Positions 7,375 through 30,184 of a stretch of 64,000 bases of DNA are shown here, piece after piece. This DNA comes from Nemertoderma westbladi (taxonomy: Eukaryota > Animalia > Xenacoelomorpha). Every line of letters begins with the position of its first letter. The stretch's first letter is position 1. The stretch lies in the NCBI GenBank assembly GCA_032718475.1, contig JAUCBJ010008372.1:1-64000 (forward strand), given 5' to 3'. Made by a program: the position numbers and the translations under genes. The notes under the pieces are model-generated. The model had not been told where the DNA came from. It did not search any database and saw nothing but the letters and a program-made list of their open reading frames with translations.

Positions 7375-7849
7375 TAACCTAGGTACATAGGTTACCTAGG
7401 TACATAGGTTACCTAGTTACATAGGTTACCTAGGTACATAGGTTACCTAGGTACATAGGTTACCTAGTTACATAGGTTACCTAGTTACATAGGTTACCTA
7501 GTTACATAGGTTACCTAGTTACATAGGTTACCTAGTTACATAGGTTACCTAGGTACATAGGTTACCTAGTTACATAGGTTACCTAGGTACATAGGTTACC
7601 TAGTTACATAGGTTACCTAGGTACATAGGTTACCTAGGTACATAGGTTACCTAGTTACATAGGTTACCTAGTTACATAGGTTACCTAGTTACATAGGTTA
7701 CCTAGTTACATAGGTTACCTAGTTACATAGGTTACCTAGGTACATAGGTTACCTAGTTACATAGGTTACCTAGGTACATAGGTTACCTAGTTACATAGGT
7801 TACCTAGGTACATAGGTTACCTAGTTACATAGGTTACCTAGGTACATAG
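7375..7849. repeat. 17-bp minisatellite tag(g/t)tacataggttacc, about 28 copies
   Basis: Directly visible tandem array with two unit variants. It ends exactly at the 5' LTR boundary. Confidence 0.97.
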
Positions 7850-9434
7850 TGTTCGCGGTATTTCAACTTTCCATAACGCGAGTTGAATATTTTTGTATTT
7901 TATTAAAATTGATTATTCCGATATTACTACTGGGTGCGGGACCATGGGTTTTGGGCACATTCAATAAACTGGGGGCGATTTATGGGCGAACTTTGGGGCA
8001 ACTTACAGGGTACGGGAATAATTTCATAGTTATAAGGGCCAGGGGGGATGGAAAATGCAAGCAGTATTCAGGTTAGCCTGAGTACTATTAGGCCCTGGCC
8101 AACTTCCTGCTGCCTGTAGGGGTGGATTTGGTAATGTGCCAGGCCTAAAGGACAAGGACTGCCCTTAGCGGTCCCTGGCCAACGGCAGCTACTACGAGCC
8201 TGAAAAGGACTCGGAACGCTGACTGCTTGTGTCAGGGATTTGCGACGGGCACCGACGGCCCCTTAGTAGCCAAGCCGTTCTGGGTCTCAATGATCGAACC
8301 CCGGGGTTCGTGAGGGGTGGAGCGGACACGCGAACAGGTGGCCAACTTAAGACTGCCCCCTGACCTAAGCCGTACTGGTTCTCGATGACCGATCCCTTTG
8401 GGGTTCGTGAGGGGTGGGACGGACATGCGAAAGGGCTGGCCACAGGACTGGTTTGACAAGGACTGCCCTTAGCGGTCTCGGGTCAACTGCGGCTACTACG
8501 AGCCTGAAAAGGACTCGGAACGCTGACTGCTTGACTGTGATTTGCGACGGGAACCGACGACAGACCCCTTAGCCAAGCCGTTCTGGTTCTCGATGATCGT
8601 TCCCTTCGGGGTTCGTGAGGGGTGGAACGGACACGCGATGGGGTCGAAAGACAAAGGACTAGACTCGACTAGACTCTACTGGCCTACCGACTGTTCGGAG
8701 CAGTTTCTCGGCTGCCGAAGCGACTACGAGCCTGAAAAGGACTCGGAAAGCCTAGGTGGTTGGGTTTCTGTGATGAACTGACGGACCCCTAGCCAAGCCG
8801 TTCTGGTTCTCGATGATCGAACCCTTCCGGGTTCGTGAGGGGTGGAACGGACACGCGAACGGGTCCACCGACACGACAGACTCCTAGCCAAGCCGTACTG
8901 GTTCTCGATGACCGAACCCTTCGGGGTTCGAGAGGGGTGGTACGGATACGCGACAGAGTCTACCGACTGGACCGACCCTTAGCCAAGCCGTGCTGGTTCT
9001 CGATGATCGTTCCCTTCGGGGTTCGTGAGGGGTGGAACGGACACGCGACAGGGTCGACCGACACCGACACTACGGCACTAAGACTGGGACTGAGGGAAAA
9101 TCTGGGGAACATTAGGTAGGCTAAAATTCTGAGCGAACAGTGGGTTATTAAATAATATACCGTAGGGATTTATATTATCGTGTATACTTATTGTGAATAT
9201 TTGGTGTATATTGATTTGGGGAAGCCCAAAATTATTCTTAATCAAGGTTCAACAGAGTTCAGTTACATTAAAGAGTATATCCAACTAATGCAGCTTTTCT
9301 CAACCGCAAACTTGCATCTTAGAAATATTCCCTCCCCACAATCAATATCCGGTGACTGGCCGGGGCTCGGTGGTCTGTTAAGTCACGTCTCCAGCATCGG
9401 CGTTTTTCCCCCTGGTGTAGGAATAACGGCAACA
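7850..9434 (+). repeat. 5' LTR (1585 bp)
   Basis: Starts tgttcgcggtatttcaac and ends ataacggcaaca. Colinear with 18243-19854. Confidence 0.93.
8258..9056 (+). ncRNA. Array of six ~85-nt structured RNA units (kink-turn-like core, C(UUCG)G apical hairpin) in the 5' LTR
   Basis: Consensus core ccgttc-tggttctc-gat-ga-t-cgaaccc-ttcg-gggttcg-t-ga-ggggtg-gaacgg at about 8258, 8353, 8563, 8783, 8878 and 8973, with compensatory changes in two stems. The repeat is directly visible; RNA function is inferred. Confidence 0.6.
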
Positions 9435-9455
9435 AAATTAAGAATAATTATATGG

Positions 9456-9602
9456 TTAATTTTGAACGGGTGTCAAAATTAAGAATAATTCACGTGGTTA
9501 ATTTTGACGGGGTGTCAAAATTAAGAATAATTAATGCGGTTAATTTTGACACGGTGTCAAAATTAAGGATAATTACGGTCAACTTCAACTGGTGGAAGTT
9601 GA
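9456..9602 (+). repeat. 42-bp-period palindromic repeats (three copies plus a fourth unrelated hairpin) at the position of the primer-binding site
   Basis: ttaattttga(c)...(g)tcaaaattaa at 9456-9482, 9498-9524 and 9540-9566; tcaacttc...gaagttga at 9579-9602. Confidence 0.85.
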
Positions 9603-9768
9603 GAATCCTTCAATACTCTTCAAAAACTCTCTATGTGCTTGCCAGCACCCACTACGAGGAAACTCTGGTATTTGAGTTGAGACAAAGTCGTGGTTTAATT
9701 AAACAACAAACTCGATCTAACCAACTCGTAGTCGGCAGATCACAATTCGGGAGAGTTGTTAACAGGGA

Positions 9769-9960
9769 ATGGAAGTATCGATCACACCCATTGATATAAT
9801 TCAAGTTGAGCCAGGAATCTGGCACGTCGAAGTTGAGGTACAAGGAACGAACGTTGGACGATTCAGGATTACTGTTCGGGTGGTCCAAGCTGAGTACAAT
9901 ACCTACGAGGAACTGTTTTACGACATCGCGTATCTCGCCATCGACGAGGCGTTACAATGA
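9769..9960 (+). CDS. Small upstream ORF (63 aa) overlapping the gag start, unknown function
   Basis: ATG start, protein-like alternating hydrophobic pattern, and its stop overlaps the gag ATG as ATGA (9957-9960). Confidence 0.4.
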   Translation: MEVSITPIDIIQVEPGIWHVEVEVQGTNVGRFRITVRVVQAEYNTYEELFYDIAYLAIDEALQ

Positions 9961-12900
9961 CCACAAATAACGTATCCGATACCGACGAGATGGATCACCA
10001 CACAGACTCGGAAGCCGACGAGGTACCAAACGTCAAGAACATGACCCGTCGGTTAGGGGCTCTTAAAGGCGGAGTAACCCGAGTGTATCAACGGATGGAG
10101 AAACAACTCAAGGGAGTCAAAACCCCCCTCAATGAGGTACAAACTCAGCTTCAAAGTATCCGAAATATCCTACAGCGGTACGAAAGAATGATACAGGCGT
10201 ACCAAGAGCTCGTTCCCCCCACCGATCTGGAAAACTACCCCAAGTTGGAAGAACACGTTGTACATCTAGATGGGTTCCGCAAACAACACCGGAGGACCCT
10301 CAGCCTTGTGAGAGGCTATGAGGAACAGTATTACAAGAGGGCCGAAAGAACAGACGCGGAATCAGTACGATCCTCCAGCATCAGGACAGCAGTACATCGA
10401 AAGAGAACGGGGTCCGTTAGAGATCAGCACTCCAGCGCTAGGAGCGAAATATCCGGCTCAGCGCGCAGTTCTCAAGGGGCGCCGCCACTCCGAGACCAAC
10501 TGCGAGAACGGAAGGCATTAGCCCTCAAAGCTCGGATGGAAGATGAGTATATTCAACTGCAAGCCGAGCAAGATGTATTAGCCGCCGAAACACAAAAGCG
10601 AGAGGCCGAACAAGAGGTCGAACGACGGGTCGAACAACGCAGACAGGAGGTCAGACAGGAGATCGAACAACGTGAACGAGAGGCCAAACGAGAGATCGAA
10701 CAACATGAACGGGAGGCCAAACAAGAGATCGAACAACGTAAATGGGAAGCAGAAATGCGTAAACAACACGCCGAGGCCCAAGCGATTCTCACTCACAAAA
10801 AGAATGCAGATATTGCGAAACTGGCGGAATACGAGGCCGCACTTATAGAACGAGATATTCAACTCTACGAGGACTGGGAAAGGGATATAGATCAGGAATA
10901 TGAACCAATTCCGATACCGGAGTTAGAAAAGTCATTTACACCAACAGCGACGAAACCTCCGAAACTCGAGATCCCGCCTACCAAACAGTCTACGCTATCG
11001 GCACAAGCTCCGGTGTTTCATCCCCCACCGGCTACGCTAAAGAATGAGGAACCCTATTTCCCATCCAACACCACGACAGCGAGTGTACCCAAGTACGAGC
11101 CTGAAAAGGACTCGGAACGGGACGCCACTCCCCGATCAAACAACCCATTTACATCAACACCACAAACTCGCAGCCGCGTCATTATTAAAACTCCACCTAC
11201 TATTGATCCATCAAGTATGGGAGTGAGTGCCAATAACTATAACCCTCCGAGTCACTCTAGTTCAGACGACGTCAGCATCATCCGGGCGTTGGAGAACCGC
11301 CTTGCCATGCCAAAGATGGAGATTCGCACCTTCGAAGGAGATCCCGTCGATTACCTCAGATTCAAGAAACGGTTCTTTGCGCAGATCGGATCAACGGACA
11401 TAGCCGACGCACAGAAATTGGTATATTTATCGCAATACCTGGGTGACAAGCCACGCAGAATTGTTGCATGTTTTGAGGGAGGTTCTCATGAGGCATACTA
11501 TGACGCATGGAAAACTCTAGATAAAAGATACGGAAATACCGGAACTATAATTAATAAAACTCTAGAGAAACTGATACAAGACGCGGGATCACTAGGGGAC
11601 CCACAGAACCTCCAGGAATTCTCAGATTCCATGAAGGATGCCTACTACACTCTGAAACCCTTAAATAAGGAGGACCAGGTGAACAACATTCTAAACCTCC
11701 GACAGATCGCCCGGAAGTTCCCCGGATGGCTGCAAAGTAAGTGGGCCTATAAATGCGTAGATCTCCGGCGCAGACATCCAGATCAAGATCCCAGCTTCCT
11801 CGAAATGTCGGCATTCCTGGACGATATCTCCGAAGCCATGAATGACTCGATGTTCTCGAAACAAAGTCTCGCCAAGTTGGACGCAATGGAGAGCAATTAC
11901 CAGAGCAGGGCACCCACTCCAAACCCAAGATTCCGCCCTACTCCTGTGAGTGCGATGGCCATCAGTATGGCTGAGGACTCGGATGACGAGGATTACGAGG
12001 AACCGACCTCAGCAGAAGAATGGGCATGCTACCTAGCGAATTGGGCACCCGAAAGGGAAGGCACCACAGCCTCCCCTATATGTCTCTTCTGTGGGGAGAA
12101 ACACAAAGTGGAATTCTGCAGAAAGTTTCAGTTCGCCGAACTCGTCCCACGCTTCGAGGCGATAATGAAACACCGAGGATGCTTCCGGTGTCTTGGAACA
12201 GGTCACTATGTTCGGGAGTGCGACCAAAGATCATGCTGTACTGTCTGTAACGACCAACGCCATCACACGCTCCTCCACATCCCCGCGAACTTCGATTTTA
12301 CTACCCTCCCCTTTCGGATCGAAGCCAGGCGAAGAGGAGAAACAAACCACATCTTCAAAGGAACCCGGACAACCCAACGGAGAGAAACCAACCCGTTTAA
12401 GATCTCCACCAATACACCACAAGTAACCAATATTTCGGCCACGATTAATCTTATAAATCGCCGCTACATGGTTTTCGCAAAGGTAATCCCAGTGAGGATC
12501 CAAGGAGTCGGCAAATCTTTGACGACACTCGCGTTCCTCGATAACGGGTCTGACGGAACCATCATCGACCGGGATTTCCTCGAGCAACTCGGCCTAGAAT
12601 ATGAACCTTGTAAACGGCCCATACAAACCATCACCGATAACAGAGAGGTAGAGTCCGGGGAGGTGCAACTCCAGATGGAAGGAGTGATGAAGGGCTACGA
12701 AACGGCTAAGTTAACCATAAAGAACGCCTTGGTACACACAGACCTCCGGGTGCGGTTCCGACAATCAGCCGAGTACGCCCCCCTCATACAATTGGACCGG
12801 GACGATGTAGACCTGAGGTGTCCGCAGTTGGACGTAAACCGTATCACCCTACTGATCGGACTTGATACACCGGAACTACACATCCCCACAGGAGATATCG

Positions 12901-13817
12901 CCCGATCTATAAACCAGGATGACGGATTTTATGCTGAACGAACAATAATGGGATGGACACTCTGCGGCATTAAGGAGGAAACTACGGACACCTATACCTA
13001 CCTTCCTAAATGTCAGATTAAAGAGAATGTAACCTCTGTGGGTTATTGCTCAGTTTCGGATCTTGACGAGGATTTGTTTCTGGAAACAGAGAAAACCCAA
13101 CGAGAGATGACGAAATATTTTAATTTGGAGACCCAGGAGTTCGCGGAAAAGGACGAAAACCCATCCGAAGAGGACCAATATTGTATGGACGTTCTCGACC
13201 AGGCCACGTTTAAAGACGGACATTGGCGCGTACCCATGCTTTGGTGGATAATAAGGTTATTGATGATAATAATGATGTTGATAACATTGACACCATTAAT
13301 TGGAGAGCACGGACTAATCTGCCGTAATACCCGGATGGCGAACGCCTCAGTTGAGTCCCTCACTCCTAACCACTTACTGGGGAGACCCAAAACCCACCTC
13401 CTCCCGGAAACCATGTTCCCGGATCCCAACGAGATCGCGAAACATACAAACTGGAAAAAGGCCCAAGCGTTGGCAGCGCATTGGTGGAGGATTTGGGCCC
13501 AGGAATATCTCATAACCCTCCGGACCAGGAGGAAATGGAACAACACCCACCGGAACGTCGCAGTTGGCGACATGGTACTAGTTAGAGAAGATCTCAAAGA
13601 CCGCGTTCACTGGCCTGTGGCGCGGGTCGTGACCATACACCCAAGCAAAGACGGACTTGCGAGGACTGTGACGATACGAACGAAAGCGGGCCACTACCAA
13701 CGCCCCATCCAGAAGCTGTGCCTTCTTGAAGGCAATGACAGTGGTGATTCTACAAGAGGTGATAAGTTCCCTACGGATCCTACTGCAGACATTGGTGACA
13801 ATTACAAATGCGTTTAA
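9957..13817 (+). CDS. gag-pol: BEL/Pao Gag-protease polyprotein fused in frame to the integrase C-terminal tail (RT, RNase H and integrase core missing)
   Basis: Coiled-coil N-terminus; capsid-like FEGDPVDYLRF..YLSQYL..LDKRYG; knuckles CLFCGEKHKVEFC, CFRCLGTGHYVREC and CTVCNDQRHHTLLH; protease LAFLDNGSDGT. DGHWRVPMLW is followed within ~40 aa by LTPNHLL..WWRIWAQEYL..VGDMVLV..WPVARV..RPIQKLCLL. No RT catalytic or DDE motifs. Confidence 0.92.
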   Translation: MTTNNVSDTDEMDHHTDSEADEVPNVKNMTRRLGALKGGVTRVYQRMEKQLKGVKTPLNEVQTQLQSIRNILQRYERMIQAYQELVPPTDLENYPKLEEHVVHLDGFRKQHRRTLSLVRGYEEQYYKRAERTDAESVRSSSIRTAVHRKRTGSVRDQHSSARSEISGSARSSQGAPPLRDQLRERKALALKARMEDEYIQLQAEQDVLAAETQKREAEQEVERRVEQRRQEVRQEIEQREREAKREIEQHEREAKQEIEQRKWEAEMRKQHAEAQAILTHKKNADIAKLAEYEAALIERDIQLYEDWERDIDQEYEPIPIPELEKSFTPTATKPPKLEIPPTKQSTLSAQAPVFHPPPATLKNEEPYFPSNTTTASVPKYEPEKDSERDATPRSNNPFTSTPQTRSRVIIKTPPTIDPSSMGVSANNYNPPSHSSSDDVSIIRALENRLAMPKMEIRTFEGDPVDYLRFKKRFFAQIGSTDIADAQKLVYLSQYLGDKPRRIVACFEGGSHEAYYDAWKTLDKRYGNTGTIINKTLEKLIQDAGSLGDPQNLQEFSDSMKDAYYTLKPLNKEDQVNNILNLRQIARKFPGWLQSKWAYKCVDLRRRHPDQDPSFLEMSAFLDDISEAMNDSMFSKQSLAKLDAMESNYQSRAPTPNPRFRPTPVSAMAISMAEDSDDEDYEEPTSAEEWACYLANWAPEREGTTASPICLFCGEKHKVEFCRKFQFAELVPRFEAIMKHRGCFRCLGTGHYVRECDQRSCCTVCNDQRHHTLLHIPANFDFTTLPFRIEARRRGETNHIFKGTRTTQRRETNPFKISTNTPQVTNISATINLINRRYMVFAKVIPVRIQGVGKSLTTLAFLDNGSDGTIIDRDFLEQLGLEYEPCKRPIQTITDNREVESGEVQLQMEGVMKGYETAKLTIKNALVHTDLRVRFRQSAEYAPLIQLDRDDVDLRCPQLDVNRITLLIGLDTPELHIPTGDIARSINQDDGFYAERTIMGWTLCGIKEETTDTYTYLPKCQIKENVTSVGYCSVSDLDEDLFLETEKTQREMTKYFNLETQEFAEKDENPSEEDQYCMDVLDQATFKDGHWRVPMLWWIIRLLMIIMMLITLTPLIGEHGLICRNTRMANASVESLTPNHLLGRPKTHLLPETMFPDPNEIAKHTNWKKAQALAAHWWRIWAQEYLITLRTRRKWNNTHRNVAVGDMVLVREDLKDRVHWPVARVVTIHPSKDGLARTVTIRTKAGHYQRPIQKLCLLEGNDSGDSTRGDKFPTDPTADIGDNYKCV

Positions 13818-14426
13818 ACCCTTCTCATCATGTTGACAAACTCTTATTAAACTGTGATTTATCGACAATGAGTTATGGACCCCCCTTAAACCAACTGTAA
13901 CCACGCAATGGTATTTGTGTTTCCTCGTGTGTTATGTGGAGTCCAGCATCACCCTGCAGATGTTTCGACTGACGCAGGGTCGTTTATGCATTGTTTACCC
14001 TGATTTTGGTCACCGCGTTCACTGGCCTGTGGCGCGGGTCGTGACCATACACCCAAGCAAAGACGGACTTGCGAGGACTGTGACGATACGAACGAAATCG
14101 GGCCACTACCAACGCCCCATCTAGAAGCTGTGCCTTCTTGAAGGCAATGACAGTGGTGATTCTACAAGAGGTGATAAGTTCCCTACTACGGATCCTGCTG
14201 CAGACATTGGTGACAATTACAAATGCGTGTAACCCTTCTCATCATGTTGACAAACTCTTTTAAAACTGTGATTTATCGACAACGAGTTATGGACCCCCCT
14301 TAAACCAACTGTAACCACGCAATGGTATTTGTGTTTCCTCGTGTGTTATGTGGAGTCCAGCATCACCCTGCAGATGTTTCGGCTGACGCAGGGTCGTTTA
14401 TGTATTGTTTACCCTGATTTTGGTCA
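13601..14426 (+). repeat. Tandem duplication (~412 bp x2) of the pol 3' end and downstream sequence
   Basis: ccgcgttcactggcctgtgg...ctgattttggtca occurs at 13601-14012 and 14013-14426. Confidence 0.95.
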
Positions 14427-14514
14427 TCAGGACCTACGATATTGGATTATTGGAAATGGAAAAGATTTGAAGTGGAATTCATTGTATTCATTGCAGTATG
14501 TTATGTTGTCCGTT

Positions 14515-14930
14515 GCGTGCGCAGTTCGGGGCGTAGGCGGTGTAACGAGTCCAGCTGTAGATCCCGGATTGCCGCGCAACACCCCCTCTATCCCGTTATT
14601 CTGGTGGGTCCATGGTGCATCCACATGACTTCGACGATAGAGGGTTTTATGTTTCTCAGTCGCGTTATTCTGGTGGGACCGTTGTGTGGATTTTAGGGCG
14701 TAGGCGGTGTAACGAGTCCAGCTGTAGATCCCAGAATGTTGCGTAACCCCATCCCACATGACTTCGTCGACTGAGCTTTATGTTGTTGGGAGTGTTATTC
14801 TGGTGGGTCCCTGGTGCATTCCACGTGACTTCACTCCCAGCGTCTTCATTGTCCGTTACGTGCGCAGTTTGGGGCGTAGGCGGTGTAACGAGTCCAGCTG
14901 TAGATCCCAGATTGCCGCGTAACACCCCTT
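14515..14930 (+). repeat. Two interleaved GC-rich motifs, three copies each, in the pol-ORF3 spacer
   Basis: gggcgtaggcggtgtaacgagtccagctgtagatccc at about 14530, 14696 and 14872; gttattctggtggg(t/a)cc at about 14595, 14664 and 14794. Confidence 0.85.
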
Positions 14931-15477
14931 CCACGACAAAGATTAGCCAAAGAAAATGATTGAATATAGTTGGAAACGATGAAAAGGATCAGACAACTCT
15001 ACTATAAACCTGAATGATGACGCGTATGCTGATGAAAATGAAATGATGCGCACCCTGGTGCTGCGCTTATAACCAATGATGATAGCCGGGGGGCTATAAA
15101 CCCAATGATGATGTGGAAATAAATAAATGTGAAATAAATGGTGGAACTAAATGTTGAAATATATGTGGAAATAAATGAAATGAGATGAAATAATAATGAA
15201 ATGAAAAAAGACAAAAAAAAGGCATAAAAAAGGTCAAAGAAAAGAATTGGAAAAAAGAAAGGACAAAAAAGTCATAAAAAACTGGTTGGATATTATGTAT
15301 AGCTATAGTAACTGTAAATGCTGAATGTATTAGCAATAAGATGATAGATGTCTATATAGCAATATTATTTAATAAACTGAATTGAATAAAAACTGAATTA
15401 TTCTGCTATCGCTATAGATTCAGACTTTCTGGACTTACAATTAACTGAACTAATTTGTAACGGATATAATCGTAAAT

Positions 15478-18078
15478 ATGGACCCAAATCGCCAAATTAT
15501 CGGCGAATTACGTAACACGATAGATCTACTGGAATATTCGCAACCCGGATCCCCTGACTTCGATACAAATTGGAGCACCCTGCTAAATGAGAACGTGCGA
15601 GTCATTAAATTCACCGGGCGAGAGGGACCGGATTCTAAGAATCTACGAGCCCTCCGGTTAGCTGATGCTAGTACGAGACTGAAAAGAACTCGGAACGCAA
15701 AGGCAACCGGAGGGGACGATTCGTCGTTTTGGGAAACGTTCCAGCAGAGCGTCTACAGATCCCGATGTTTGATCTACGACAACGAGGGAAACGCGACGCC
15801 CACCTCGAAAGCGATTACGTTGGCGAGATGTCAAAGTTTCGTCGACGACAAGAGTACGTACCTCGCCCACTGGGGAAACCTGTCGGAGTGTACGGCGACG
15901 CTTCGAGAGGAACGCGTATCGATTATCCAAAACCGCGACGACTACCAGGAAAAGTACGGGGCGAAAGAATACGGTCGATCCTTAGTCGTCGTCCTCGGAA
16001 CCCTGGACGGTTTGGTACTGGTGTGCCGAATATTCCCGACACCCAGACAGGAAGTGCAGGCAGCCGGAGCGATCTGGTTGCTGCCTCCGGAAATCCAAAA
16101 GATCCTCTTCGACTTTGACGTCATTAAAATCGGGTCGGATATCAAGGCGGACGTCCGGAACGACTACGCGAACGCTCCTACAGGATGAAACCGACGAGAC
16201 GACCTCAACGCCCTTGGCCATTGCATCGACACTCAAACGTTACTAGCCTGGTTACGATTCGCCGAGTTCATGCGAGGATTCCAAGAGGTGAGACCGACGA
16301 AATCCGGGATCGGCTACCTCGCTGTGCTAAACGGCGGTATCGACTTCAAACCCCAGAAATTCCGGGACTATAATAAAATATACAGTGGATACCCGGGATT
16401 GGAAATAAAGAGCGAGCGAGAGGGTCGATGGAAGGACGTTGATCGGAAGTGGACGATACACCAAAGATGGGAGAATCCCGATCGACGGAACTACGTTTAC
16501 GTCGTTATGGAATGCTACACCGTCGCTAAGTTTATCTGTAAAACTCTCGATAACCTTATTACGGCGGTCCCCCTTTCCTTCGTCGACTACGACTGGAACG
16601 AGGTTATAAACCACGCGTTTAAAGCGGTCGAGAACATTACACCGGGAGAATCGAAAACACCCGCCGTTATCGATTCCTGGGACGAGAGCGGACCTTACGA
16701 CATCCCTACGATTACCGAACTTCTCGGTGCGGAGGAGCCTCTGATCTCTTCGGAAGGGGAAGAGATATGGCTAAACGAGGGTGTTCTACTCTCCACCCCG
16801 AAGTGACAACTAGAGCCGGAGGCCGCGTATGGACCGGCCGCCAAACGGGTTGCCTCGACCGAATCGATGAAGAGAGCAGGCGTTTACACTCCACGCGGCT
16901 CCGGTAGCCCCGCGAGGGAGGTGGCTACTACAGCTGCATTGAGCGACTTCGGCGACATATGCCAACGGTTATCCCCGTATCCTTTCCCGGGTGGCGAAGA
17001 TTGGTCGTCGGAGATTCCGAGTACCAGCCACCAACGGACCCGCGCAGCGATACTGATCGAGGAGGGCCCCAGCGACGCGCCGACCCCCGACGATCTCCTC
17101 GGTATCCCTCCGTCGAAAACCCCGGCACCTCTTCGCCGACCAGTGGTGGCTACTACACCCGCCGTTCCTCAGGACCCTATGCGACTAACCCGTTGGTACG
17201 CCGAGCAAACTGAATGGATCCACCGCCAGAAACGGTCATCCGAGTTGAGACCAGCGGGACACAAAGAAGGTTATCGGAGCGAGAACCTATTACGCAAAAG
17301 CCTAGCATTCCGCGGGCTACCGACCACCGAGAATATTCCGAAGAGCGACCGACGACTCGAATACTACGTCGGCGTCCCGATTCCGATATTCCCCGGTCGA
17401 GAGATGCAGTTGGAGGTATGCGGCGACTGCGGCTCGGAGCAGTGCCCACGCGGCAGAAGGAATCGGGTTACCGATTCTTGCCTCCAGCTCCTCGGGATAC
17501 TCTATTGCCCATACTGCGCGACATCGGGCCACGACGTTTCCGTCTGCCCGATCCTTTATAACCTCTGCACCACGTGCGGTTTCCGTGGACATTCCTCTAG
17601 CCCCCGCTGCTATATCAAATGTCCAACCAAAGACGTTACCGCTATGGGCAATATGGTCATGTTTGAAACATACGCAAACAGCCATTTAAAGACCAAGGTT
17701 CGGAGAAACGCTCGGAATATCGCGCAGGAGATGGCGTGCGGATATTTCTCCTTCCTGGAACGCCTCCACACGTCGGCCACGCTACCTTTCCATTACGTGG
17801 ATCTACTACTGAGCGCCGGATTATTCGGTCCATTTGAAGTCATTAGACAATTATACTCGTATAAAGAGGAGTTCGGTGATGGAGAATGGTTCCTAGAGGC
17901 ACGCAAATCTGAGTTGGAAAGACGAACCGACATGATCCCGATGCCTTCGAAAGGAAGAGCCGCCAGGAGACAAGCCGAAGCGTTACTCACGATGGACGTT
18001 GATGCTCCTCTACCAGCCATAGCGATCGATGAGAGTCGACGGGCGAAGAGACGAAAGGCGTATCAGAGAAAGAAATAG
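15478..18078 (+). CDS. Retrotransposon accessory ORF: DEDDy-like (WRN/EXD/RNase D-type) 3'-5' exonuclease plus C-terminal Cys/His zinc knuckles; one frame of ~866 codons interrupted by two in-frame TGA
   Basis: ORFs 15478, 16270 and 16867 are in the same frame and separated only by TGA at 16186 and 16804. Motifs: ExoI-like LIYDNEG; LPPEIQKILFDFDVIKIGSDIKAD (ExoII); CIDTQTL; SGIGYL; W...YVYVVMEC (ExoIII-like YxxxE); CPYCATSGHDVSVC; CTTCGFRGHSSSPRC. Confidence 0.7.
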
Positions 18079-18230
18079 TGGATCGGGATATTCCAGGAAC
18101 ATTTATCGAACATTTATTTTTTATACAAACTCTAGGCCAAATTAATTAAAAACTATGCAATATTAAATTTGGGTTTTTTATTGGGAATGACCTACGCAAA
18201 CTCAATCGACCGACAGACTTCACGAAGGTC

Positions 18231-18242
18231 ATTGGGGGGGAC
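18231..18242 (+). promoter_or_regulatory. Polypurine tract
   Basis: attgggggggac immediately before the 3' LTR TGTT. Confidence 0.75.
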
Positions 18243-19854
18243 TGTTCGCGGTATTTCAACTTTCCATAACGCGAGTTGAATATTTTTGTATTTTATTTAA
18301 AATTGATTATTCCGATATTACTACTGGGTGCGGGACCATGGGTTTTGGGCACATTCAATAAACTGGGGGCGATTTATGGGCGAACTTTGGGGCAACTTAC
18401 AGGGTACGGGAATAATTTCATAGTTATAAGGGCCAGGGGGGGATGGAAAATGCAAGCAGTATTCAGGTTAGCCTGAGTACTATTAGGCCCTGGCCAACTT
18501 CCTGCTGCCTGTAGGGGTGGATTTGGTAATGCGCCAGGCCTAAAGGACAAGGACTGCCCTTAGCGGTCCCTGGCCAACAGCAGCCATTACGAGACTGAAA
18601 AGAACTCGGACCGCTGACTGCTTGTGTCAGGGATTTGCGACGGGCACCGTAGTAGCTTAGTAGCCAAGCCGTTCTGGTTCTCGATGATCGTTCCCTTCAG
18701 GGTTCGTGAGGGGTGGAGCGGACACGCGAACGGGTGGCCAACTAACGACTGCCCCCTGACCTAAGCCGTACTGGTTCTCGATGACCGATCCCTTCGGGGT
18801 TCGTGAGGGGTGGGACGGACATGCGAAAGGGCTGGCCACAGGACGGGTTTGACGAGAACTGCCCTTAGCGGTCTCTGGTCAACGGCAGCTACTACGAGAC
18901 TGAAAAGAACTCGGAACGCTGACTGCTTGTACTGGGATTTGTGACGGGAACCGACGACAGACCCCTTAGCCAAGCCGTACTGGTTCTCAATGATCGTTCC
19001 CTTCGGGGTTCGTGAGGGGTGGAACGGACACGCGATGGGGTCGAAAGACAAAGGACTAGACTCGACTAGACTCTACTGGCCTACCGACTGTTCGGAGCAG
19101 TTTCTCGGCTGCCGAAGCGACTACGAGCCTGAAACGGACTCGGAAAGCCTAGGTGGTTGGGTTTCTGTGATGAACCGACGGACCCCTAGCCAAGCCGTTC
19201 TGGTTCTCGATGATCGAACCCTTCGGGGTTCGTGAGGGGTGGAACGGACACGCGAACGGGTCCACCGACACGACAGACTCCTAGCCAAGCCGTACTGGTT
19301 CTCGATGACCGAACCCTTCGGGGTTCGAGAGGGGTGGTACGGATACGCGACAGAGTCTACCGACTGGACCGACCCTTAGCCAAGCCGTGCTGGTTCTCGA
19401 TGATCGTTCCCTTCGGGGTTCGTGAGGGGTGGAACGGACACGCGACAGGGTCGACCGACACCGACACTACGGCACTAAGACTGGGACCGAGGGAAAATCT
19501 GGGGAACATTAGGTAGGCTAAAATTCTGAGCGAACAGTGGGTAATTAAATAATATACCGTAGGGATTTATATTATCGTGTATAATTATTGTGAATATTTG
19601 GTGTATATTGATTTGGGGAAGCCCAAAATTATTCTTAATCAAGTTTCAATGATGTTGAACGGGTTTCAACTATAGGAAGTTACATTAAAGAGTATATCCA
19701 ACTAATGCAGCTTTTTATCAACCGCAAACTTGCATCTCAGAAAATATTCCCTCCCCACAATCAATATCCGGTGACTGGCCGGGGCTCGGTGGTCTGTTAA
19801 GTCACGTCTCCAGCATCGGCGTTTTTCCCCCCTGGTGTAGGGATAACGGCAACA
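18243..19854 (+). repeat. 3' LTR (1612 bp), with the same six-unit hairpin array
   Basis: tgttcgcggta...ataacggcaaca. Similar but not identical to the 5' LTR (indel near 19645-19680, substitutions in 18580-18960). Confidence 0.93.
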
Positions 19855-22281
19855 AGTATTGATACAGAATATGATACCCTGACCTTTTTGAAATTTCCCA
19901 CCACCACAAACAAACAAACATACTTTCCCACAAACAGAGAAATGTATCATTGGATTTGGTAGGTTTTCTCATGTTACAATAAGTGTGGAATTATTGTACT
20001 GTTTATAGCAGAGTAAGTGTCTTATTCAAAAATTACGAGTGTACAGAACAGTGAGTGTGGAAAAATAGTAATGTAAGTTCAAATAAGTACTGTATATAAG
20101 TGCCACTCATCAAAGAAAGTATAATTTTTAATGTCGTTTTATTCCTGGTAAAATAAATTATTATAAAAATATATGTATATAAATTAGTTCGTATTTGAAT
20201 AGTTTCGTGAGTTGCCAAATCGGTTGGATCTATATATGGGAGTCTAGAACTGACACGTTATATTCGTCGAATAAGTGGCCATTGTCGATACAGTGTTGTG
20301 TTATTCCAAAACGTTTATAGCCATTATATAAGACCGCATATAACTGTAAATCGATACTTTTCATTTACCAATTACCATTATTTACATTCAAATTTTAAGC
20401 CCACCACCAACACTGTCAGTAAAAACTCTAACACTCTCCATAAATAATGTTCGTTGTGGTGTTTTATATGTTTTAGTTTAAGTTTCCCAATGCAATTATG
20501 GTCAGTTCAGGCATTACAGTCTATTTTACATAATGCATGCATGAGTTTAACCTTCTTTCCCAACCATCTTTAAATCGGAGCAAACAGTAGTTGTTTATAT
20601 TAACAGTATACTGTATCGCGGGTAGTTGTTTATATTAACAGTATACAGTATCGCGGGTAGTTGTATATATTAACAGTATACAGTATCATGGGTAGTTGTT
20701 TATATTAACAGTATACAGTATCATGGGTAGTTGTATATATTAACAGTATCGCGGGTAGTTGTTTATATTAACAGTATACAGGATCGCGGGTAGTTGTTTA
20801 TATTAACAGTATACAGTATCGCGGGTAGTTGTTTATATTAACAGTATACAGTATCGCGGGTAGTTGTTTATATTAACAGTATTCAGTATCGCGGGTAGTT
20901 GTTTATATTAACAGTATACAGTATCGCGGGTAGTTGTTTATACTAACAGTATCGCAGGTAGTTGTTTATATTAACAGTATCGCAGGTAGTTGTTTATATT
21001 AACAGTATCGCAGGTAGTTGTTTATATTAACAGTATACAGTATCGCGGGTAGTTGCTTATATTAACAGTATACAGTATCGTGGGTAGTTGTTTATATTAA
21101 CAGTACAGTATCACGGGTAGTTGTTTATATTAACAGTATCGCGGGTAGTTGTTTATATTAACAGTATAAAGTATCGTGGGTAGTGGTTTATATTAACAGT
21201 ATCGCAGGTAGTTGTTTATATTAAAAGTATACAGTATCGCGGGTAGTTGTTTATATTAACAGTATACAATATCGCAGGTAGTTGTTTATATTAACAGTAT
21301 CGCAGGTAGTTGTTTATATTAACAGTATACAGTATCGCGGGTAGTTGTTTATATTAACAGTATACAGTATCGTGGGTAGTTGTTTATATTAACAGTACAG
21401 TATCGCAGGTAGTTGTTTATATTAACAGTATCGCAGGTAGTTGTTTATATTAACAGTATACAGTATAGCGGGTAGTTGTATATATTAACAGTATACAGTA
21501 TCACGGGTAGTTGTTTATATTAACAGTACAGTATCGCGGGTAGTTGTTTATATTAACAGTATACACTATCGCGGGTAGTTGTTTATATTAACAGTACAGT
21601 ATCGCGGGTAGTTGTTTATATTAACAGTATACAGTATCGTGGGTAGTGGTTTATATTAACAGTATCGCAGGTAGTTGTTTATATTAACAGTATACAGTAT
21701 CGCGGGTAGTTGTTTATATTAACAGTATACAGTATCGCAGGTAGTTGTTTATATTAACAGTATCGCAGGTAGTTGTTTATATTAACAGTATACAGTATCG
21801 CGGGTAGTTGTTTATATTAACAGTATACACTATCGCGGGTAGTTGTTTATATTAACAGTACAGTATCGCGGGTAGTTGTATATATTAACAGTATCGCGGG
21901 TAGTTGTTTATATTAACAGTACAGTATCGCAGGTAGTTGTTTATATTAACAGTATTGCAGGTAGTTGTTTATATTAACATTATACAGTATCGCGGGTAGT
22001 TGATTATATTAACAGTATACAGTATTGCGGGTAGTTGTTTATATTAACAGTACAGTATCGCAGGTAGTTGTTTATATTAACAGTATTGCAGGTAGTTGTT
22101 TATATTAACAGTATACAGTATCGCGGGTAGTTGTTTATATTAACAGTATACAGTATCGCAGGTAGTTGTTTATATTAACAGTATACAGTATCGCGGGTAG
22201 TTGTTTATATTAACAGTATACAGTATCGTGGGTAGTTGTTTATATTAACAGTACAGTATCGCAGGTAGTTGTTTATATTAA

Positions 22282-23838
22282 CCCTATTAGTACCGGGCTA
22301 TAAAATGTTGTACAAATACCGGGGAGGGGTCATATTGACCCCCCCCCCCTCTAAAATCTACAAATTTTTACGAAAACGTCTGATTTTTTGTTTGTACGTA
22401 GGTATCACAAGTCAGGATCCGACCGAAAAAAAAAATTTTCGAAAAAATGTACTGGGGTGGTTATATTGCAGCACCAAAATTACAAGTAGTGCACAATTTT
22501 CAGAAAATTTGAAACTTACATTTTTCGTCTAATTGTTTTTCAATACAGGTTTTCTGGGGCGCAAAATACATTGGAAAATATTTAAAAATGATTTGATTAC
22601 TATAAGTGGCTGTTTAGTCCTCTCTGCGTCGGAAAAAAATGAAAAAAACAAGTAACCAGCACTTTTCAGTTAGAACACAAAATTTTTAATTCACTTATAC
22701 GATGCTATAAATTCACATTTTCAGGCTTTCTAGGGCGCTGATTCTAATGGAATACATTTCTAAAATGCCCCATCATTGCTACTTGTATTTTTCGACGTAA
22801 TTTTGCAAATTTTGGTGCTAGGACCAAATTTCGTACCCATCACCAAAAAGTAAAAGTTTGCGATGTCCAGTGCTGTTTTTATTGATTCCATCGGATTCAG
22901 GACCCTCATAAACCCGTATAACGCAATAAACAAGATGATACTATCTACTGATCAATTTGCTTATTTTCCAAAATTTGGTGCTGGCACAACAATTTTCACC
23001 CACCGGCGAAAAATACAAGTTTGAAAACTCTCATGAAATTTTTACTGATTCCATTGAATTCAGAACCCTCACAAACCCGTATAACACAAGAAACAAGGTG
23101 ACACAATCAATTTATATATTTGATGGTTTTCAAAATTTGGTGCTAGCACCACATTTTGCACCCACTTCCGAAAAATACAAGTTTGAGATGTCTAGATCGA
23201 AAAATATATATTCCATTCAATTCAGAATAGCCATAAACCTCTAAAACGCAAGAAATAAATTGTCACAAACAATTTTATCAATTGATTGGATTTTCAAAAT
23301 TTTGTGCTAGCACCAAAATTTGCACCCACCACCGAAAAATACAAGTTTGATACGCTTGGTGCAACTCGTATATATTTCATCGAAACCAGAACCCCAAAAA
23401 ACCCCAATTGCGTAAAAAACAAGTTTCACACAATCAATTTACAAAATTGACATATTTCAAAATTTGGTGCTGGCACCAAAAATTGGCACCCGCCGAAAAA
23501 AACAAGTTTGAAATTTCTAAATCAATTTATATGAATTCCATCCAATTTCTAACTCCAAAAAACCGGTGTAAATCAATAATAGAGATGTTACAATTCATAT
23601 TTAATGAAATGTAATTTTCAAAAAACGTCTCAAAAAAAGTGCCAAAAGTAGGGTTAAAAAATGGTGCTATAACTCGAAAACTACCCAATATTTTTAAAAA
23701 CGGTTTTTACTACTAGGAAGACAAAAGATGTTTAGGAAAAGTCATAAAATTTCAGATTGCCAACTGCGTTTGTTTCAGAATTATAATAAAAAAACCACGG
23801 GGGGGGGGGTCATATTGACCCCCCCGGGTTTAATAGGG
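22282..23838. mobile_element. piggyBac-type non-autonomous element, copy 1 (1557 bp)
   Basis: TTAA target duplication (22278-22281 and 23839-23842), TIR ccctatta...taataggg, subterminal palindrome ggggtcatattgacccc at both ends. No transposase ORF. Confidence 0.92.
22800..23620. repeat. Internal ~163-bp diverged tandem repeat (5 units) inside the piggyBac-type element
   Basis: caaaatttggtgct(a/g)gcacc-like motif at about 22806, 22968, 23131, 23295 and 23458; also present in copy 2. Confidence 0.8.
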
Positions 23839-26800
23839 TTAACAGTATCGCAGGTAGTTGTTTATATTAACAGTATACAGTATCGCGGGTAGTTGTTTAT
23901 ATTAACAGTATACAGTATCGCGGGTAGTTGTTTATATTAACAGTACAGTATCGCGGGTAGTTGTTTATATTAACAGTATACACTATCGCGGGTAGTTGTT
24001 TATATTAACAGTATACAGTATCGTGGGTAGTGGTTTATATTAACAGTACAGTATCGCGGGTAGTTGTTTATATTAACAGTATACACTATCGCGGGTAGTT
24101 GTTTATATTAACAGTATACAGTATCGTGGGTAGTGGTTTATATTAACAGTATACAGTATCGCTGGTAGTTGTTTATATTAACAGTATACAGTATCATGGG
24201 TAGTTGTTTATATTAACAGTATACAGTATCGCGGGTATTTGTTTATATTAACAGTATCGCTGGTAGTTGTTTATATTAACAGTATACAATATCATGGGTA
24301 GTTGTTTATATTAACAGTATAAAGTATCGCGAGTAGTAGTTTATTATTAACAGTATACAGTATCATGGGTAGTTTTTTATATTAACAGTATACAGTATCG
24401 CGGGTAGTTGTTTATAGTAACACCATACAGTATCATGTATAGTTGTTTATATTAACAGTATACAGTATCGCGGGTAGTTGTTTATAGTAACAGCATACAG
24501 TATCATGGGTAGTTGTTTATATTAACAGTATACAGTATCATGGGTAGTTATTTATATTAACAGTATACAGTATCGCGGGTAGTTGTTTATATTAACAGTA
24601 TACAGTATTGCGGGTAGTTGTTTATATTAACAGTATACAGTATCATGGGTAGTTGTTTATATTAACAGTCTACAGTATCGCGGGTAGTTGTTTATAGTAA
24701 CAGCATACAGTATCATGGGTAGTTGTTTATATTAACAGTATACAGTATCATGGGTAGTTGTTTATATTAACAGTATACAGTATTGCGGGTATAGTTGTTT
24801 ATATTAACAGTATCGCAGGTAGTTGTTTATATTAACAGTATCGCAGGTAGTTGTTTATATTAACAGTATACAGTATCGCGGGTAGTTGTTTATATTAACA
24901 GTATACAGTATCGTGGGTAGTTGTTTATATTAACAGTACAGTATCGCGGGTAGTTGTTTATATTAACAGTATCGCGGGTAGTTGTTTATATTAACAGTAT
25001 ACAGTATCGTGGGTAGTGGTTTATATTAACAGTATCGCAGGTAGTTGTTTATATTAACAGTATTGCAGGTAGTTGTTTATATTAACAGTATCGCAGGTAG
25101 TTGTTTATATTAACAGTATACAGTATCGCGGGTAGTTGTTTATATTAACAGTATACAGTATCGTGGGTAGTTGTTTATATTAACAGTACAGTATCGCAGG
25201 TAGTTGTTTATATTAACAGTATCGCAGGTAGTTGTTTATATTAACAGTATACAGTATCGCGGGTAGTTGTTTATATTAACAGTATACAGTATCGTGGGTA
25301 GTTGTTTATATTAACAGTACAGTATCGCAGGTAGTTGTTTATATTAACAGTATCGCAGGTAGTTGTTTATATTAACAGTATACAGTATCGCGGGTAGTTG
25401 TTTATATTAACAGTATACAGTATCGCGGGTAGTTGTTTATATTAACAGTATATAGTATCGCGGGTAGTTGTTTATATTAACAGTATATAGTATCGCGGGT
25501 AGTTGTTTATATTAACAGTATATAGTATCGCGGGTAGTTGTTTATATTAACAGTATATAGTATCGCGGGTAGTTGTTTATATTAACAGTATATAGTATCG
25601 CGGGTAGTTGTTTATATTAACAGTATACAGTATCGCGGGTAGTTGTTTATATTAACAGTATACAGTATCGCGGGTAGTTGTTTATATTAACAATATACAG
25701 TATCGCGGGCAGTTGTTTATATTAACAGTATACAGTATCGCGGGTAGTTGTTTATATTAACAGTATACAGTATCGCGGGTACAGTAGTTGTTTATATTAA
25801 CAGTATACAGTATCGCGGGTAGTTGTTTATATTAACAGTATACAGTATCGTGGGTAGTTGTTTATATCAACAGTACAGTATCGCGGGTAGTTGTTTATAT
25901 TAACAGTATACAGTATCGCGGGTAGTTGTTTATATTAACAGTATACAGTATCGCGGGTAGTTGTTTATATTAACAGTATACAGTATCGTGGGTAGTGGTT
26001 TATACTAACAGTATCGCAGGTAGTTGTTTATATTAACAGTATCGCAGGTAGTTGTTTATATTAACAGTATCGCAGGTAGTTGTTTATATTAACAGTATAC
26101 AGTATCGCGGGTAGTTGCTTATATTAACAGTATACAGTATCGTGGGTAGTTGTTTATATTAACAGTACAGTATCACGGGTAGTTGTTTATATTAACAGTA
26201 TCGCGGGTAGTTGTTTATATTAACAGTATAAAGTATCGTGGGTAGTGGTTTATATTAACAGTATCGCAGGTAGTTGTTTATATTAAAAGTATACAGTATC
26301 GCGGGTAGTTGTTTATATTAACAGTATACAATATCGCAGGTAGTTGTTTATATTAACAGTATCACAGGTAGTTGTTTATATTAACAGTATACAGTATCGT
26401 GGGTAGTTGTTTATATTAACAGTACAGTATCGCAGGTAGTTGTTTATATTAACAGTATCGCAGGTAGTTGTTTATATTAACAGTATACAGTATAGCGGGT
26501 AGTTGTATATATTAACAGTATACAGTATCACGGGTAGTTGTTTATATTAACAGTACAGTATCGCGGGTAGTTGTTTATATTAACAGTATACACTATCGCG
26601 GGTAGTTGTTTATATTAACAGTACAGTATCGCGGGTAGTTGTATATATTAACAGTATCGCGGGTAGTTGTTTATATTAACAGTATACAGTATCGTGGGTA
26701 GTGGTTTATATTAACAGTATCGCAGGTAGTTGTTTATATTAACAGTATACAGTATCGCGGGTAGTTGTTTATATTAACAGTATACAGTATCGCAGGTAGT

Positions 26801-29800
26801 TGTTTATATTAACAGTATCGCAGGTAGTTGTTTATATTAACAGTATACAGTATCGCGGGTAGTTGTTTATATTAACAGTATACACTATCGCGGGTAGTTG
26901 TTTATATTAACAGTACAGTATCGCGGGTAGTTGTATATATTAACAGTATCGCGGGTAGTTGTTTATATTAACAGTACAGTATCGCAGGTAGTTGTTTATA
27001 TTAACAGTATTGCAGGTAGTTGTTTATATTAACATTATACAGTATCGCGGGTAGTTGTTTATATTAACAGTATACAGTATTGTGGGTAGTTGTTTATATT
27101 AACAGTACAGTATCGCAGGTAGTTGTTTATATTAACAGTATTGCAGGTAGTTGTTTATATTAACAGTATACAGTATCGCGGGTAGTTGTTTATATTAACA
27201 GTATACAGTATCGCGGGTAGTTGTTTATAGTAACACCATACAGTATCATGTATAGTTGTTTATATTAACAGTATACAGTATCGCGGGTAGTTGTTTATAG
27301 TAACAGCATACAGTATCATGGGTAGTTGTTTATATTAACAGTATACAGTATCATGGGTAGTTATTTATATTAACAGTATACAGTATCGCGGGTAGTTGTT
27401 TATATTAACAGTATACAGTATTGCGGGTAGTTGTTTATATTAACAGTATACAGTATCATGGGTAGTTGTTTATATTAACAGTCTACAGTATCGCGGGTAG
27501 TTGTTTATAGTAACAGCATACAGTATCATGGGTAGTTGTTTATATTAACAGTATACAGTATCATGGGTAGTTGTTTATATTAACAGTATACAGTATTGCG
27601 GGTATAGTTGTTTATATTAACAGTATCACAGGTAGTTGTTTATATTAACAGTATCGCAGGTAGTTGATTATATTAACAGTATACAGTATCGCGGGTAGTT
27701 GTTTATATTAACAGTATACAGTATCGTGGGTAGTTGTTTATATTAACAGTACAGTATCGCGGGTAGTTGTTTATATTAACAGTATCGCGGGTAGTTGTTT
27801 ATATTAACAGTATACAGTATCGTGGGTAGTGGTTTATATTAACAGTATCGCAGGTAGTTGTTTATATTAACAGTATTGCAGGTAGTTGTTTATATTAACA
27901 GTATCGCAGGTAGTTGTTTATATTAACAGTATACAGTATCGCGGGTAGTTGTTTATATTAACAGTATACAGTATCGTGGGTAGTTGTTTATATTAACAGT
28001 ACAGTATCGCAGGTAGTTGTTTATATTAACAGTATCGCAGGTAGTTGTTTATATTAACAGTATACAGTATCGCGGGTAGTTGTTTATATTAACAGTATAC
28101 AGTATCGTGGGTAGTTGTTTATATTAACAGTACAGTATCGCAGGTAGTTGTTTATATTAACAGTATCGCAGGTAGTTGTTTATATTAACAGTATACAGTA
28201 TCGCGGGTAGTTGTTTATATTAACAGTATACAGTATCGCGGGTAGTTGTTTATATTAACAGTATATAGTATCGCGGGTAGTTGTTTATATTAACAGTATA
28301 TAGTATCGCGGGTAGTTGTTTATATTAACAGTATATAGTATCGCGGGTAGTTGTTTATATTAACAGTATATAGTATCGCGGGTAGTTGTTTATATTAACA
28401 GTATATAGTATCGCGGGTAGTTGTTTATATTAACAGTATACAGTATCGCGGGTAGTTGTTTATATTAACAGTATACAGTATCGCGGGTAGTTGTTTATAT
28501 TAACAGTATACAGTATCGCGGGTAGTTGTTTATATTAACAGTATACAGTATCGCGGGTAGTTGTTTATATTAACAGTATACAGTATCGCGGGTACAGTAG
28601 TTGTTTATATTAACAGTATACAGTATCGCGGGTAGTTGTTTATATTAACAGTATACAGTATCGTGGGTAGTTGTTTATATCAACAGTACAGTATCGCGGG
28701 TAGTTGTTTATATTAACAGTATACAGTATCGCGGGTAGTTGTTTATATTAACAGTATACAGTATCGCGGGTAGTTGTTTATATTAACAGTATACAGTATC
28801 GTGGGTAGTGGTTTATACTAACAGTATCGCAGGTAGTTGTTTATATTAACAGTATCGCAGGTAGTTGTTTATATTAACAGTATCGCAGGTAGTTGTTTAT
28901 ATTAACAGTATACAGTATCGCGGGTAGTTGCTTATATTAACAGTATACAGTATCGTGGGTAGTTGTTTATATTAACAGTACAGTATCACGGGTAGTTGTT
29001 TATATTAACAGTATCGCGGGTAGTTGTTTATATTAACAGTATAAAGTATCGTGGGTAGTGGTTTATATTAACAGTATCGCAGGTAGTTGTTTATATTAAA
29101 AGTATACAGTATCGCGGGTAGTTGTTTATATTAACAGTATACAATATCGCAGGTAGTTGTTTATATTAACAGTATCACAGGTAGTTGTTTATATTAACAG
29201 TATACAGTATCGCGGGTAGTTGTTTATATTAACAGTATACAGTATCGTGGGTAGTTGTTTATATTAACAGTACAGTATCGCAGGTAGTTGTTTATATTAA
29301 CAGTATCGCAGGTAGTTGTTTATATTAACAGTATACAGTATAGCGGGTAGTTGTATATATTAACAGTATACAGTATCACGGGTAGTTGTTTATATTAACA
29401 GTACAGTATCGCGGGTAGTTGTTTATATTAACAGTATACACTATCGCGGGTAGTTGTTTATATTAACAGTACAGTATCGCGGGTAGTTGTATATATTAAC
29501 AGTATCGCGGGTAGTTGTTTATATTAACAGTATACAGTATCGTGGGTAGTGGTTTATATTAACAGTATCGCAGGTAGTTGTTTATATTAACAGTATACAG
29601 TATCGCAGGTAGTTGTTTATATTAACAGTATACAGTATCGCAGGTAGTTGTTTATAATAACAGTATCGCAGGTAGTTGTTTATATTAACAGTATACAGTA
29701 TCGCGGGTAGTTGTTTATATTAACAGTATACACTATCGCGGGTAGTTGTTTATATTAACAGTACAGTATCGCGGGTAGTTGTATATATTAACAGTATCGC

Positions 29801-30184
29801 GGGTAGTTGTTTATATTAACAGTACAGTATCGCAGGTAGTTGTTTATATTAACAGTATTGCAGGTAGTTGTTTATATTAACATTATACAGTATCGCGGGT
29901 TGTTGTTTATATTAACAGTATACAGTATTGCGGGTAGTTGTTTATATTAACAGTACAGTATCGCAGGTAGTTGTTTATATTAACAGTATTGCAGGTAGTT
30001 GTTTATATTAACAGTATACAGTATCGCGGGTAGTTGTTTATATTAACAGTATACAGTATCGCAGGTAGTTGTTTATATTAACAGTATACAGTATCGCGGG
30101 TAGTTGTTTATATTAACAGTATACAGTATCGTGGGTAGTTGTTTATATTAACAGTACAGTATCGCAGGTAGTTGTTTATATTAA

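Follow-up and report, generated by a model that had tools for sequence, protein, structure and literature searches.

What does a BEL/Pao retrotransposon carry in the place where others of its superfamily carry an envelope gene? Several BEL/Pao elements, namely roo, Cer7, and Tas, have env as a third ORF. In the stretch of 64,000 nucleotides analyzed here (hereafter, the window), the third ORF of such an element, ORF3, had been read in an earlier note as a gene for a DEDDy-like exonuclease with zinc knuckles. The questions are what ORF3 encodes, whether it serves the element, and on what its product may act.

The element is bounded by two LTRs of ~1.6 kb (7850–9436 and 18243–19856), differing by 49 substitutions, and the BEL/Pao marks, namely a DUF1759 gag, a protease, and a DUF5641 tail, are present between them. 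Its main features are as follows.

7850–9436, + strand: 5′ LTR (TG...CA) with hairpin array, 95.4% identical to 18243–19856
9957–13817, + strand: gag-protease ORF in fusion with the 3′-terminal piece of pol (DUF1759, zf-CCHC, aspartyl protease, and DUF5641 by Pfam)
13600–14426, + strand: tandem duplication of the 3′ end of pol, two copies of ~415 bp, 96.9% identical
15478–18078, + strand: ORF3, a reading frame of 866 codons, broken in this copy
18234–18242, + strand: purine tract preceding the 3′ LTR
18243–19856, + strand: 3′ LTR with three hairpins A (18588, 18893, and 19122) and six hairpins B

The Pao-type reverse transcriptase (RT), the Peptidase_A17 region, and integrase were absent from the window copy and present in the relative locus L003. 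Because a complete BEL pol from a relative aligned only to 13359–13640, corresponding to the last 95 residues of the upstream ORF, we conclude that the RT, RNase H, and integrase core was deleted. The window copy is dead and non-autonomous. No matching target-site duplication was seen in the flanks (7839–7849 and 19857–19866), and the LTRs, ~5% apart, differ by patterned changes; recombination between two elements, or a join made in assembly, may account for this copy. A 17-bp satellite forms the 5′ flank. At 9437–9575, where one would expect a primer-binding site immediately behind the 5′ LTR, there are short AT-rich tandem repeats, partly inverted. Between pol and ORF3, the spacer contains three related repeats of 55–83 bp (14506–14934), followed by an A-rich stretch (15180–15290). 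Large satellite blocks, in which one 36-bp unit occurs 329 times, were also present in the window at 20600–37000 and 41081–53000.

ORF3 is located between the pol remnant on one side and the purine tract with the 3′ LTR on the other. The frame of ~866 codons previously described was found at 15478–18078, but it is not open in the window copy, where two in-frame TGA stops leave segments of 236, 205, and 423 codons.

16186–16188, + strand: in-frame stop 1, copy-specific damage; a sense codon in all covering contig depth (X1, X2, and X3)
16804–16806, + strand: in-frame stop 2, copy-specific damage; a sense codon in other-copy contigs

The other copies of ORF3 were contigs from three studies (X1 and X4 are from the same sample), and their depth is contig depth, not copy number. 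By this measure, stop 2 was a sense codon in >99.8% of the depth in X1, X3, and X4 and in 81.6 of 107.9 in X2. Since nearly all other copies have sense codons at these positions, the stops represent damage of the window copy; the ORF3 family has one open frame, and therefore no read-through model is needed. The protein was accordingly read with X at both positions. Programmed read-through of stop 2, whose 3′ context we take to resemble a leaky-stop motif, and its decoding as selenocysteine were both rejected on account of the sense codon in nearly all other copies. One diverged X2 contig had no listed difference at the stop-2 codon and may share this stop. Around stop 2 (16790–16830), 9 of 11 variable places were third codon positions (p 0.0014). 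Among the 36 ORF3 places listed in the wider comparison (40 of 389 rows), the bias was weak, with 17 third, 10 first, and 9 second positions. A diverged X2 copy aligned at ~80% over the nuclease and knuckle regions, and much of the linker between them (16863–17249) was unalignable.

An N-terminal part of the ORF3 product was modeled with AlphaFold. The features of the predicted domain are as follows.

15718–16632, + strand: predicted DEDDy 3′–5′ exonuclease domain, aa 81–385 (model pLDDT 62, pTM 0.65; Nibbler match)
15778–15786, + strand: ExoI motif D101-x-E103, aligned with the DxE of homologues, at the end of the first strand in the model
15790–15963, + strand: insertion of ~55 residues after ExoI, missing in all six aligned homologues and spanned by two X2 contigs
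16150–16152, + strand: ExoII D225, invariant in the homologue alignment and aligned with the Asp of WRN/EXD2
16498–16512, + strand: ExoIII Y341-xxx-E345 with E replacing D; E in P0002 and P0004, D in P0012–P0014

The model covered aa 78–385, was built from seven aligned sequences, and, with a pLDDT of 62, is of middling confidence; it has the five-strand core of the RNase H-like fold. The best match in VIA-align was the EXO domain of Nibbler (7JW2; Z 11.0, rmsd 4.1, 186 aligned residues), followed among the matches listed by NrnC-like nucleases, RNase D (Z 9.7), EXD1 (9.6), WRN (8.9), Trypanosoma brucei RNase D (8.8), and Egalitarian (8.7). All 50 matches listed were DEDD-superfamily nucleases or polymerase proofreading domains, and at least 25 chains among them had Z ≥ 8. 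With Mut-7/Nibbler and EXD1, only the nuclease fold is shared, at 12–13% identity. EXD2 ranked first in Foldseek (E 0.009, probability 0.98), in which no match reached E ≤ 0.001. The first fold, from five sequences, was poor (pLDDT 39), yet its top nine matches were all DEDDy entries. Profile matches to WRN and EXD2 were weak (E about 0.1), and homologue P0002 scored 11.9 bits against PF01612 (gathering score 23.6). A segment of homologue P0004, aa 100–370, scored 0.95 against a PF01612 cluster in the Atlas. A Pfam scan of the ORF3 protein gave no family match, neither PF01612 nor a cellular partner domain, and a PDB sequence search with this protein gave nothing useful.

The DEDDy assignment, made earlier from motifs, was thus supported: a DEDD fold, whose absence had been named as the point to check, was found in the VIA comparison, and the motifs align with those of homologues. 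Based on the model, the ORF3 domain is predicted to have a DEDDy fold with a D-E-D-Y-E site. The earlier note's argument against an envelope function is supported as well. No env-family match was obtained with Pfam, and the model folds the sole hydrophobic stretch, 19 residues at aa 168–186 (Kyte–Doolittle 2.08), into the two-strand hairpin that belongs to the nuclease; the statement that the protein has no transmembrane segment therefore holds. By eye, its N-terminus has no hydrophobic core.

All motifs named earlier were present, namely YDNEG (aa 100–104), KIGSDIKAD, IDTQ, and YVVME (aa 341–345), as were the Pro-rich linker and the basic tail. Alignment with homologues placed acidic residues at all four catalytic positions together with the Tyr. 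Relative to the YxxxD of DEDDy enzymes, the Tyr is present and the Asp is replaced by Glu in the window protein, a substitution that had been pointed out before and that proved to be common to P0002 and P0004. ExoI placement is the weak point of this assignment: no other site in the protein scores better than D101-x-E103, yet it was equalled by 43 of 500 shuffles, moderate support in a test on sequence only. The ~55-residue insertion beside it belongs to the ORF3 family of the window element, because the two X2 contigs, one of them 83% identical, cover it without a large gap. Within it, aa 139–156 resemble the segment preceding ExoI in P0004 (score 33, against 16 for the runner-up), which suggests that the nuclease domain was rearranged and may be impaired.

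These features bear on the reading that ORF3 encodes a dead or crippled nuclease, serving like Egalitarian or EXD1 as an RNA-binding adaptor for transport or packaging of the element RNA. The signs of rearrangement at ExoI, the D-to-E change at ExoIII, the degenerate homologues P0003 and P0006, and the presence of Egalitarian and EXD1 among the structure matches agree with it, and the hairpins repeated in the element RNA (see below) would suit such a protein. However, the full set of acidic residues and the Tyr was kept in five of seven homologues, and the model places the DxE strand within the core sheet. We regard the adaptor function as rather unlikely; the product of intact ORF3 copies is probably an active RNase.

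Downstream of the nuclease, the following features were found.

16648–17397, + strand: Pro-rich, poorly conserved linker (12% Pro over aa 391–640; unalignable stretch in the diverged copy)
17419–17625, + strand: three tandem zinc-knuckle-type units, aa 648–716 (invariant C, H, Y, and RGH columns; weak zf-CCHC matches)
17650–17847, + strand: conserved region 3′ of the knuckles, FE.yA...T..R...G.f...F.Y..LL
18025–18075, + strand: basic tail (27% K+R over aa 811–866)

A CxxC cluster and two knuckles had been reported; the Cys/His cluster exists, but it consists of three tandem knuckle-type units. Unit 2 (C677–C690) has the exact CX2CX4HX4C spacing, unit 3 has CX2CX4H with a late last ligand, and unit 1, a normal CCHC in most homologues, has lost its His in the window protein. 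The Pfam zf-CCHC matches were below the cut-off. The module does not resemble the gag knuckles, as neither of two gag proteins matched it. When a profile of the homologue alignment was searched, its best match was T. brucei RNase D (TbRND; E 0.017, a match made by way of its knuckles), and knuckles of HIV NC were also among the profile matches.

The HIV NC match bears on another reading, in which ORF3 encodes an enzyme on DNA that polishes or proofreads the 3′ ends of reverse-transcription products, its knuckles binding single-stranded nucleic acid as in a nucleocapsid. WRN also scores close in structure, as do Pol I proofreading domains and diDNases, and the fold lacks the power to separate RNA from DNA substrates because the latter two lie within 1.5 Z of Nibbler. 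On the other hand, ORF3 is a separate frame that begins 1.66 kb downstream of pol, no way for its product to enter the particle is known, and both the best matches and the only protein of the same architecture are RNases. A DNA substrate is therefore considered improbable.

To place ORF3 among its relatives, we used seven proteins with E ≤ 0.001 from a search among 1.84 billion protein representatives and six metagenome loci found by a knuckle pattern scan. The nuclease and the knuckle module occurred in one frame in nine of 14 ORF3-like proteins tested, that is, in eight besides the window protein, although the nuclease profile was built from seven of the 14 and its independent matches were P0001 and P0021 only. 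The other five had the knuckle module only and may be cut short. When the window protein was left out of the profiles, its ORF3 was matched by the nuclease profile at E 9e-13 (single-sequence search) and by the knuckle profile at E 2e-12 (16 sequences searched). Among the seven homologues with a whole nuclease domain, DxE, D, and YxxxD/E were kept in five, and the catalytic residues were lost in P0003 and P0006. P0003 (L005:124-2022) combines its degenerate nuclease with the knuckle module in duplicate, both copies being complete. In a seven-sequence tree, the YxxxD homologues split from the others, and the window row was long and unplaced; an independent comparison of the YxxxD and YxxxE sub-groups gave a probability of 65 and an E of 6e-5. 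Members of the YxxxD sub-group (L003:6155-10264, L002:116-3118, and L006:3-3485) have long N-terminal extensions with a Cys-x4-Cys-x2-Arg-Asn motif ahead of the nuclease. A word-based search gave no matches for aa 1–442, and with aa 40–260 of P0002 it found only P0002 itself. Viral contigs gave no match to the knuckle pattern or to hairpin A, and no rotifer sequences were returned by the homologue searches.

In L003, a complete BEL pol is immediately followed by the same nuclease-knuckle gene and then by a purine tract. A BEL host element is established for the genes of L003 and the window, and the other homologues are known as genes alone; the ORFs behind the gene in L004 and L005 were not recognizable as gag. 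What is observed for ORF3 thus comprises its position, its domain order, its conservation in distant relatives, the copy-specific nature of its damage, and the third-codon bias. It is very probably a conserved DEDDy-knuckle accessory gene of BEL/Pao elements. That it is instead a captured host fragment, passive and without function for the element, would fit the decay of the window copy and the lack of a clear departure from neutrality described for rotifer ORF3s in PMC5408684. This reading is highly improbable, given that a distantly related BEL element has the same two-domain gene downstream of its pol, that the catalytic and Cys/His residues are kept among relatives at 15–30% identity, and that the copies show an open frame with third-position bias.

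The earlier note had further tied ORF3 to a hairpin array in the LTRs. Each LTR contains three GAAA-capped hairpins (A) and six kink-turn-like hairpins (B). The 26-nt cores of hairpin A are at 8193, 8497, 8725, 11094, 15672, 18588, 18893, and 19122, two of them outside the LTRs.

11094–11119, + strand: hairpin A copy in the gag coding sequence (0 mismatches in 26 to the LTR core)
15672–15697, + strand: hairpin A copy in the ORF3 coding sequence, aa 65–74 (2 mismatches to the LTR core)

In hairpin A, the stem ends in a GAAA cap and contains a single bulged A; below this lies an internal loop that resembles loop E. The gag and ORF3 copies are in different reading frames, and the best of 200 shuffles had seven mismatches. 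Two of the ten base-stem pairs changed on both sides; this is a weak test, as eight related sequences were compared and the structure was drawn from the same sequences. The different frames and the paired stem changes suggest that hairpin A is kept at the nucleic-acid level, and the copy inside the ORF3 gene is a candidate RNA ligand. The ORF3 variant is common to two copies of the 3′ LTR, and the gag variant to copies of the 5′ LTR. Hairpin B, at 8270–9060 and 18664–19460, is mostly UUCG-capped, and we take it to follow a box C/D-like kink-turn pattern; kink-turn-like UUCG hairpins numbered 6–7 per LTR, whereas shuffled sequences had 0.46 on average. Its basal loop is loosely like the 11-nt GAAA receptor, the signature of which is CCUAaG/U_AaGG (PMC2615604), with the signature U replaced by C in five of six copies. 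Rfam gave no matches at E ≤ 1 within 7800–20000, and no report of kink-turn arrays in LTRs was found among the papers searched.

These hairpins raise the possibility that ORF3 encodes an active RNase for the element's own RNA, which would trim 3′ ends back to the LTR hairpins, acting as roadblocks or binding sites, and thereby mature or regulate LTR-derived RNAs. Besides the array itself, the recurrence of hairpin A in gag and ORF3 in different frames and with paired base-stem changes is consistent with this, as is the processing of structured RNA ends by RNase D-type enzymes, mentioned in PMC5408684. However, hairpin A was absent from all six relative loci (best, eight mismatches), mostly short loci of which four have <500 bases downstream. 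In L004, no array, repeats, or kink-turn-like hairpin was found in the 1,479 non-coding bases from the knuckle gene to a primer-site-like motif, TGGCGCCC. The array test is weak, as the nuclease part of L004 is off the contig and in most relative loci the sequence ends before an LTR could be seen. The ORF3 protein family is also far older than the hairpins. Own-RNA trimming is thus a possible but doubtful reading. The array looks like a feature of the window element's lineage, added to an older ORF3 gene, and an obligatory link between ORF3 and the LTR array as a rule, which the earlier idea of an array-dedicated module implied, is not supported. It is also unlikely, though conceivable, that the element forms a self-contained RNA–protein system, in which the receptor-like loops of the kink-turn/UUCG hairpins would dock with the GAAA-loop hairpins of the LTRs, gag, and ORF3, folding the genomic RNA, and the ORF3 protein would bind the hairpins and trim LTR transcripts into structured RNAs that steer packaging or disarm silencing.

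Our preferred, still tentative, explanation is that ORF3 is a DEDDy-knuckle accessory protein that over-trims host silencing RNAs or their precursors. Intact copies would make a DEDDy-type 3′–5′ exonuclease tethered to three zinc knuckles; the knuckles would hold single-stranded RNA and pass its 3′ end into the active site. The analogy of T. brucei RNase D leads us to infer knuckle-assisted RNA binding combined with two-metal trimming. The target, most likely host small silencing RNAs or precursors, is the least certain part. Silencing RNAs are favored because a separate ORF would act in trans, because Nibbler, which trims small RNAs, is the nearest structural match, and because several unrelated retroelements picked up such nucleases. 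Counting against this target, 3′ methylation usually protects mature piRNAs. In the two sub-groups YxxxD and YxxxE, there are five natural homologues that are unbroken and keep the full catalytic set (P0002, P0004, and P0012–P0014); with these, a direct test could decide between counter-silencing through small RNAs and processing of RNA from the element itself.

The closest known counterparts among mobile elements are the DEDDy ORF3s of the bdelloid rotifer elements Juno, Vesta, and Athena/Terminon, described by Rodriguez et al. 2017 (PMC5408684) and mentioned again in two reviews (PMC6431247 and PMC5718144) and in PMC6338049. The earlier note's statement that DEDDy cargo had been seen before therefore holds for rotifers, but the nematode precedent that it also named was not found among the papers searched, and nematodes are not mentioned in PMC5408684. 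Like the ORF3s of Juno and Vesta, window ORF3 is a non-envelope third ORF after pol, of DEDDy type, without a transmembrane segment and with an altered acidic motif. The change affects the last position here (DEDE), whereas the rotifer proteins, for which PMC5408684 gives no demonstrated activity, have DEED. The host element also differs, being BEL/Pao here and of the four lineages Juno, Vesta, TelKA, and Mag in the rotifer study (PMC5408684), and window ORF3 has a long linker, three knuckles, and an extra conserved region, compared with only a Cys-His-Cys motif, in the Vesta2 and Vesta5 ORF3s, in the same text. A nuclease ORF3 in BEL/Pao elements was not found in a search covering mainly open papers and their main texts, and an earlier annotation of one may exist. 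The present gene adds a second retrotransposon superfamily to the carriers of exonuclease ORF3s, beyond the rotifer retroelements.

Among cellular proteins, the closest predicted fold and motif order are those of the PF01612 group (Nibbler/Mut-7, EXD2, WRN-exo, EXD1, and Egalitarian), from which window ORF3 differs in its 10–17% identity, the lack of detected partner domains, the insertion after ExoI, and YxxxE. The fusion to knuckles that the earlier note had stressed is real and conserved, but as a design it has a cellular precedent in TbRND (7C42 and 7C45), which likewise joins a DEDDy nuclease to tandem CCHC knuckles downstream of it within a single polypeptide. According to PMC7797062, the CCHC domain of TbRND binds the RNA body and strongly raises nuclease trimming, and the enzyme is cellular and mitochondrial, with four knuckles, a 28-residue linker, and specificity for U-tails. 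Window ORF3, at 14% identity, has three knuckles, a 250-residue linker, and an extra C-terminal region, and is on a retrotransposon; the shared architecture is likely convergent. ORF3 represents a protein family that is old and in which the combination of nuclease and knuckles is fixed, resembling the design of the trypanosome enzyme. With other BEL/Pao elements, the window element shares the DUF1759 gag, the aspartyl protease, the DUF5641 tail, and TG...CA LTRs; it differs from the env-bearing members in its 1.6-kb LTRs with a hairpin array and in a third ORF that encodes a predicted nuclease rather than a fusion glycoprotein.
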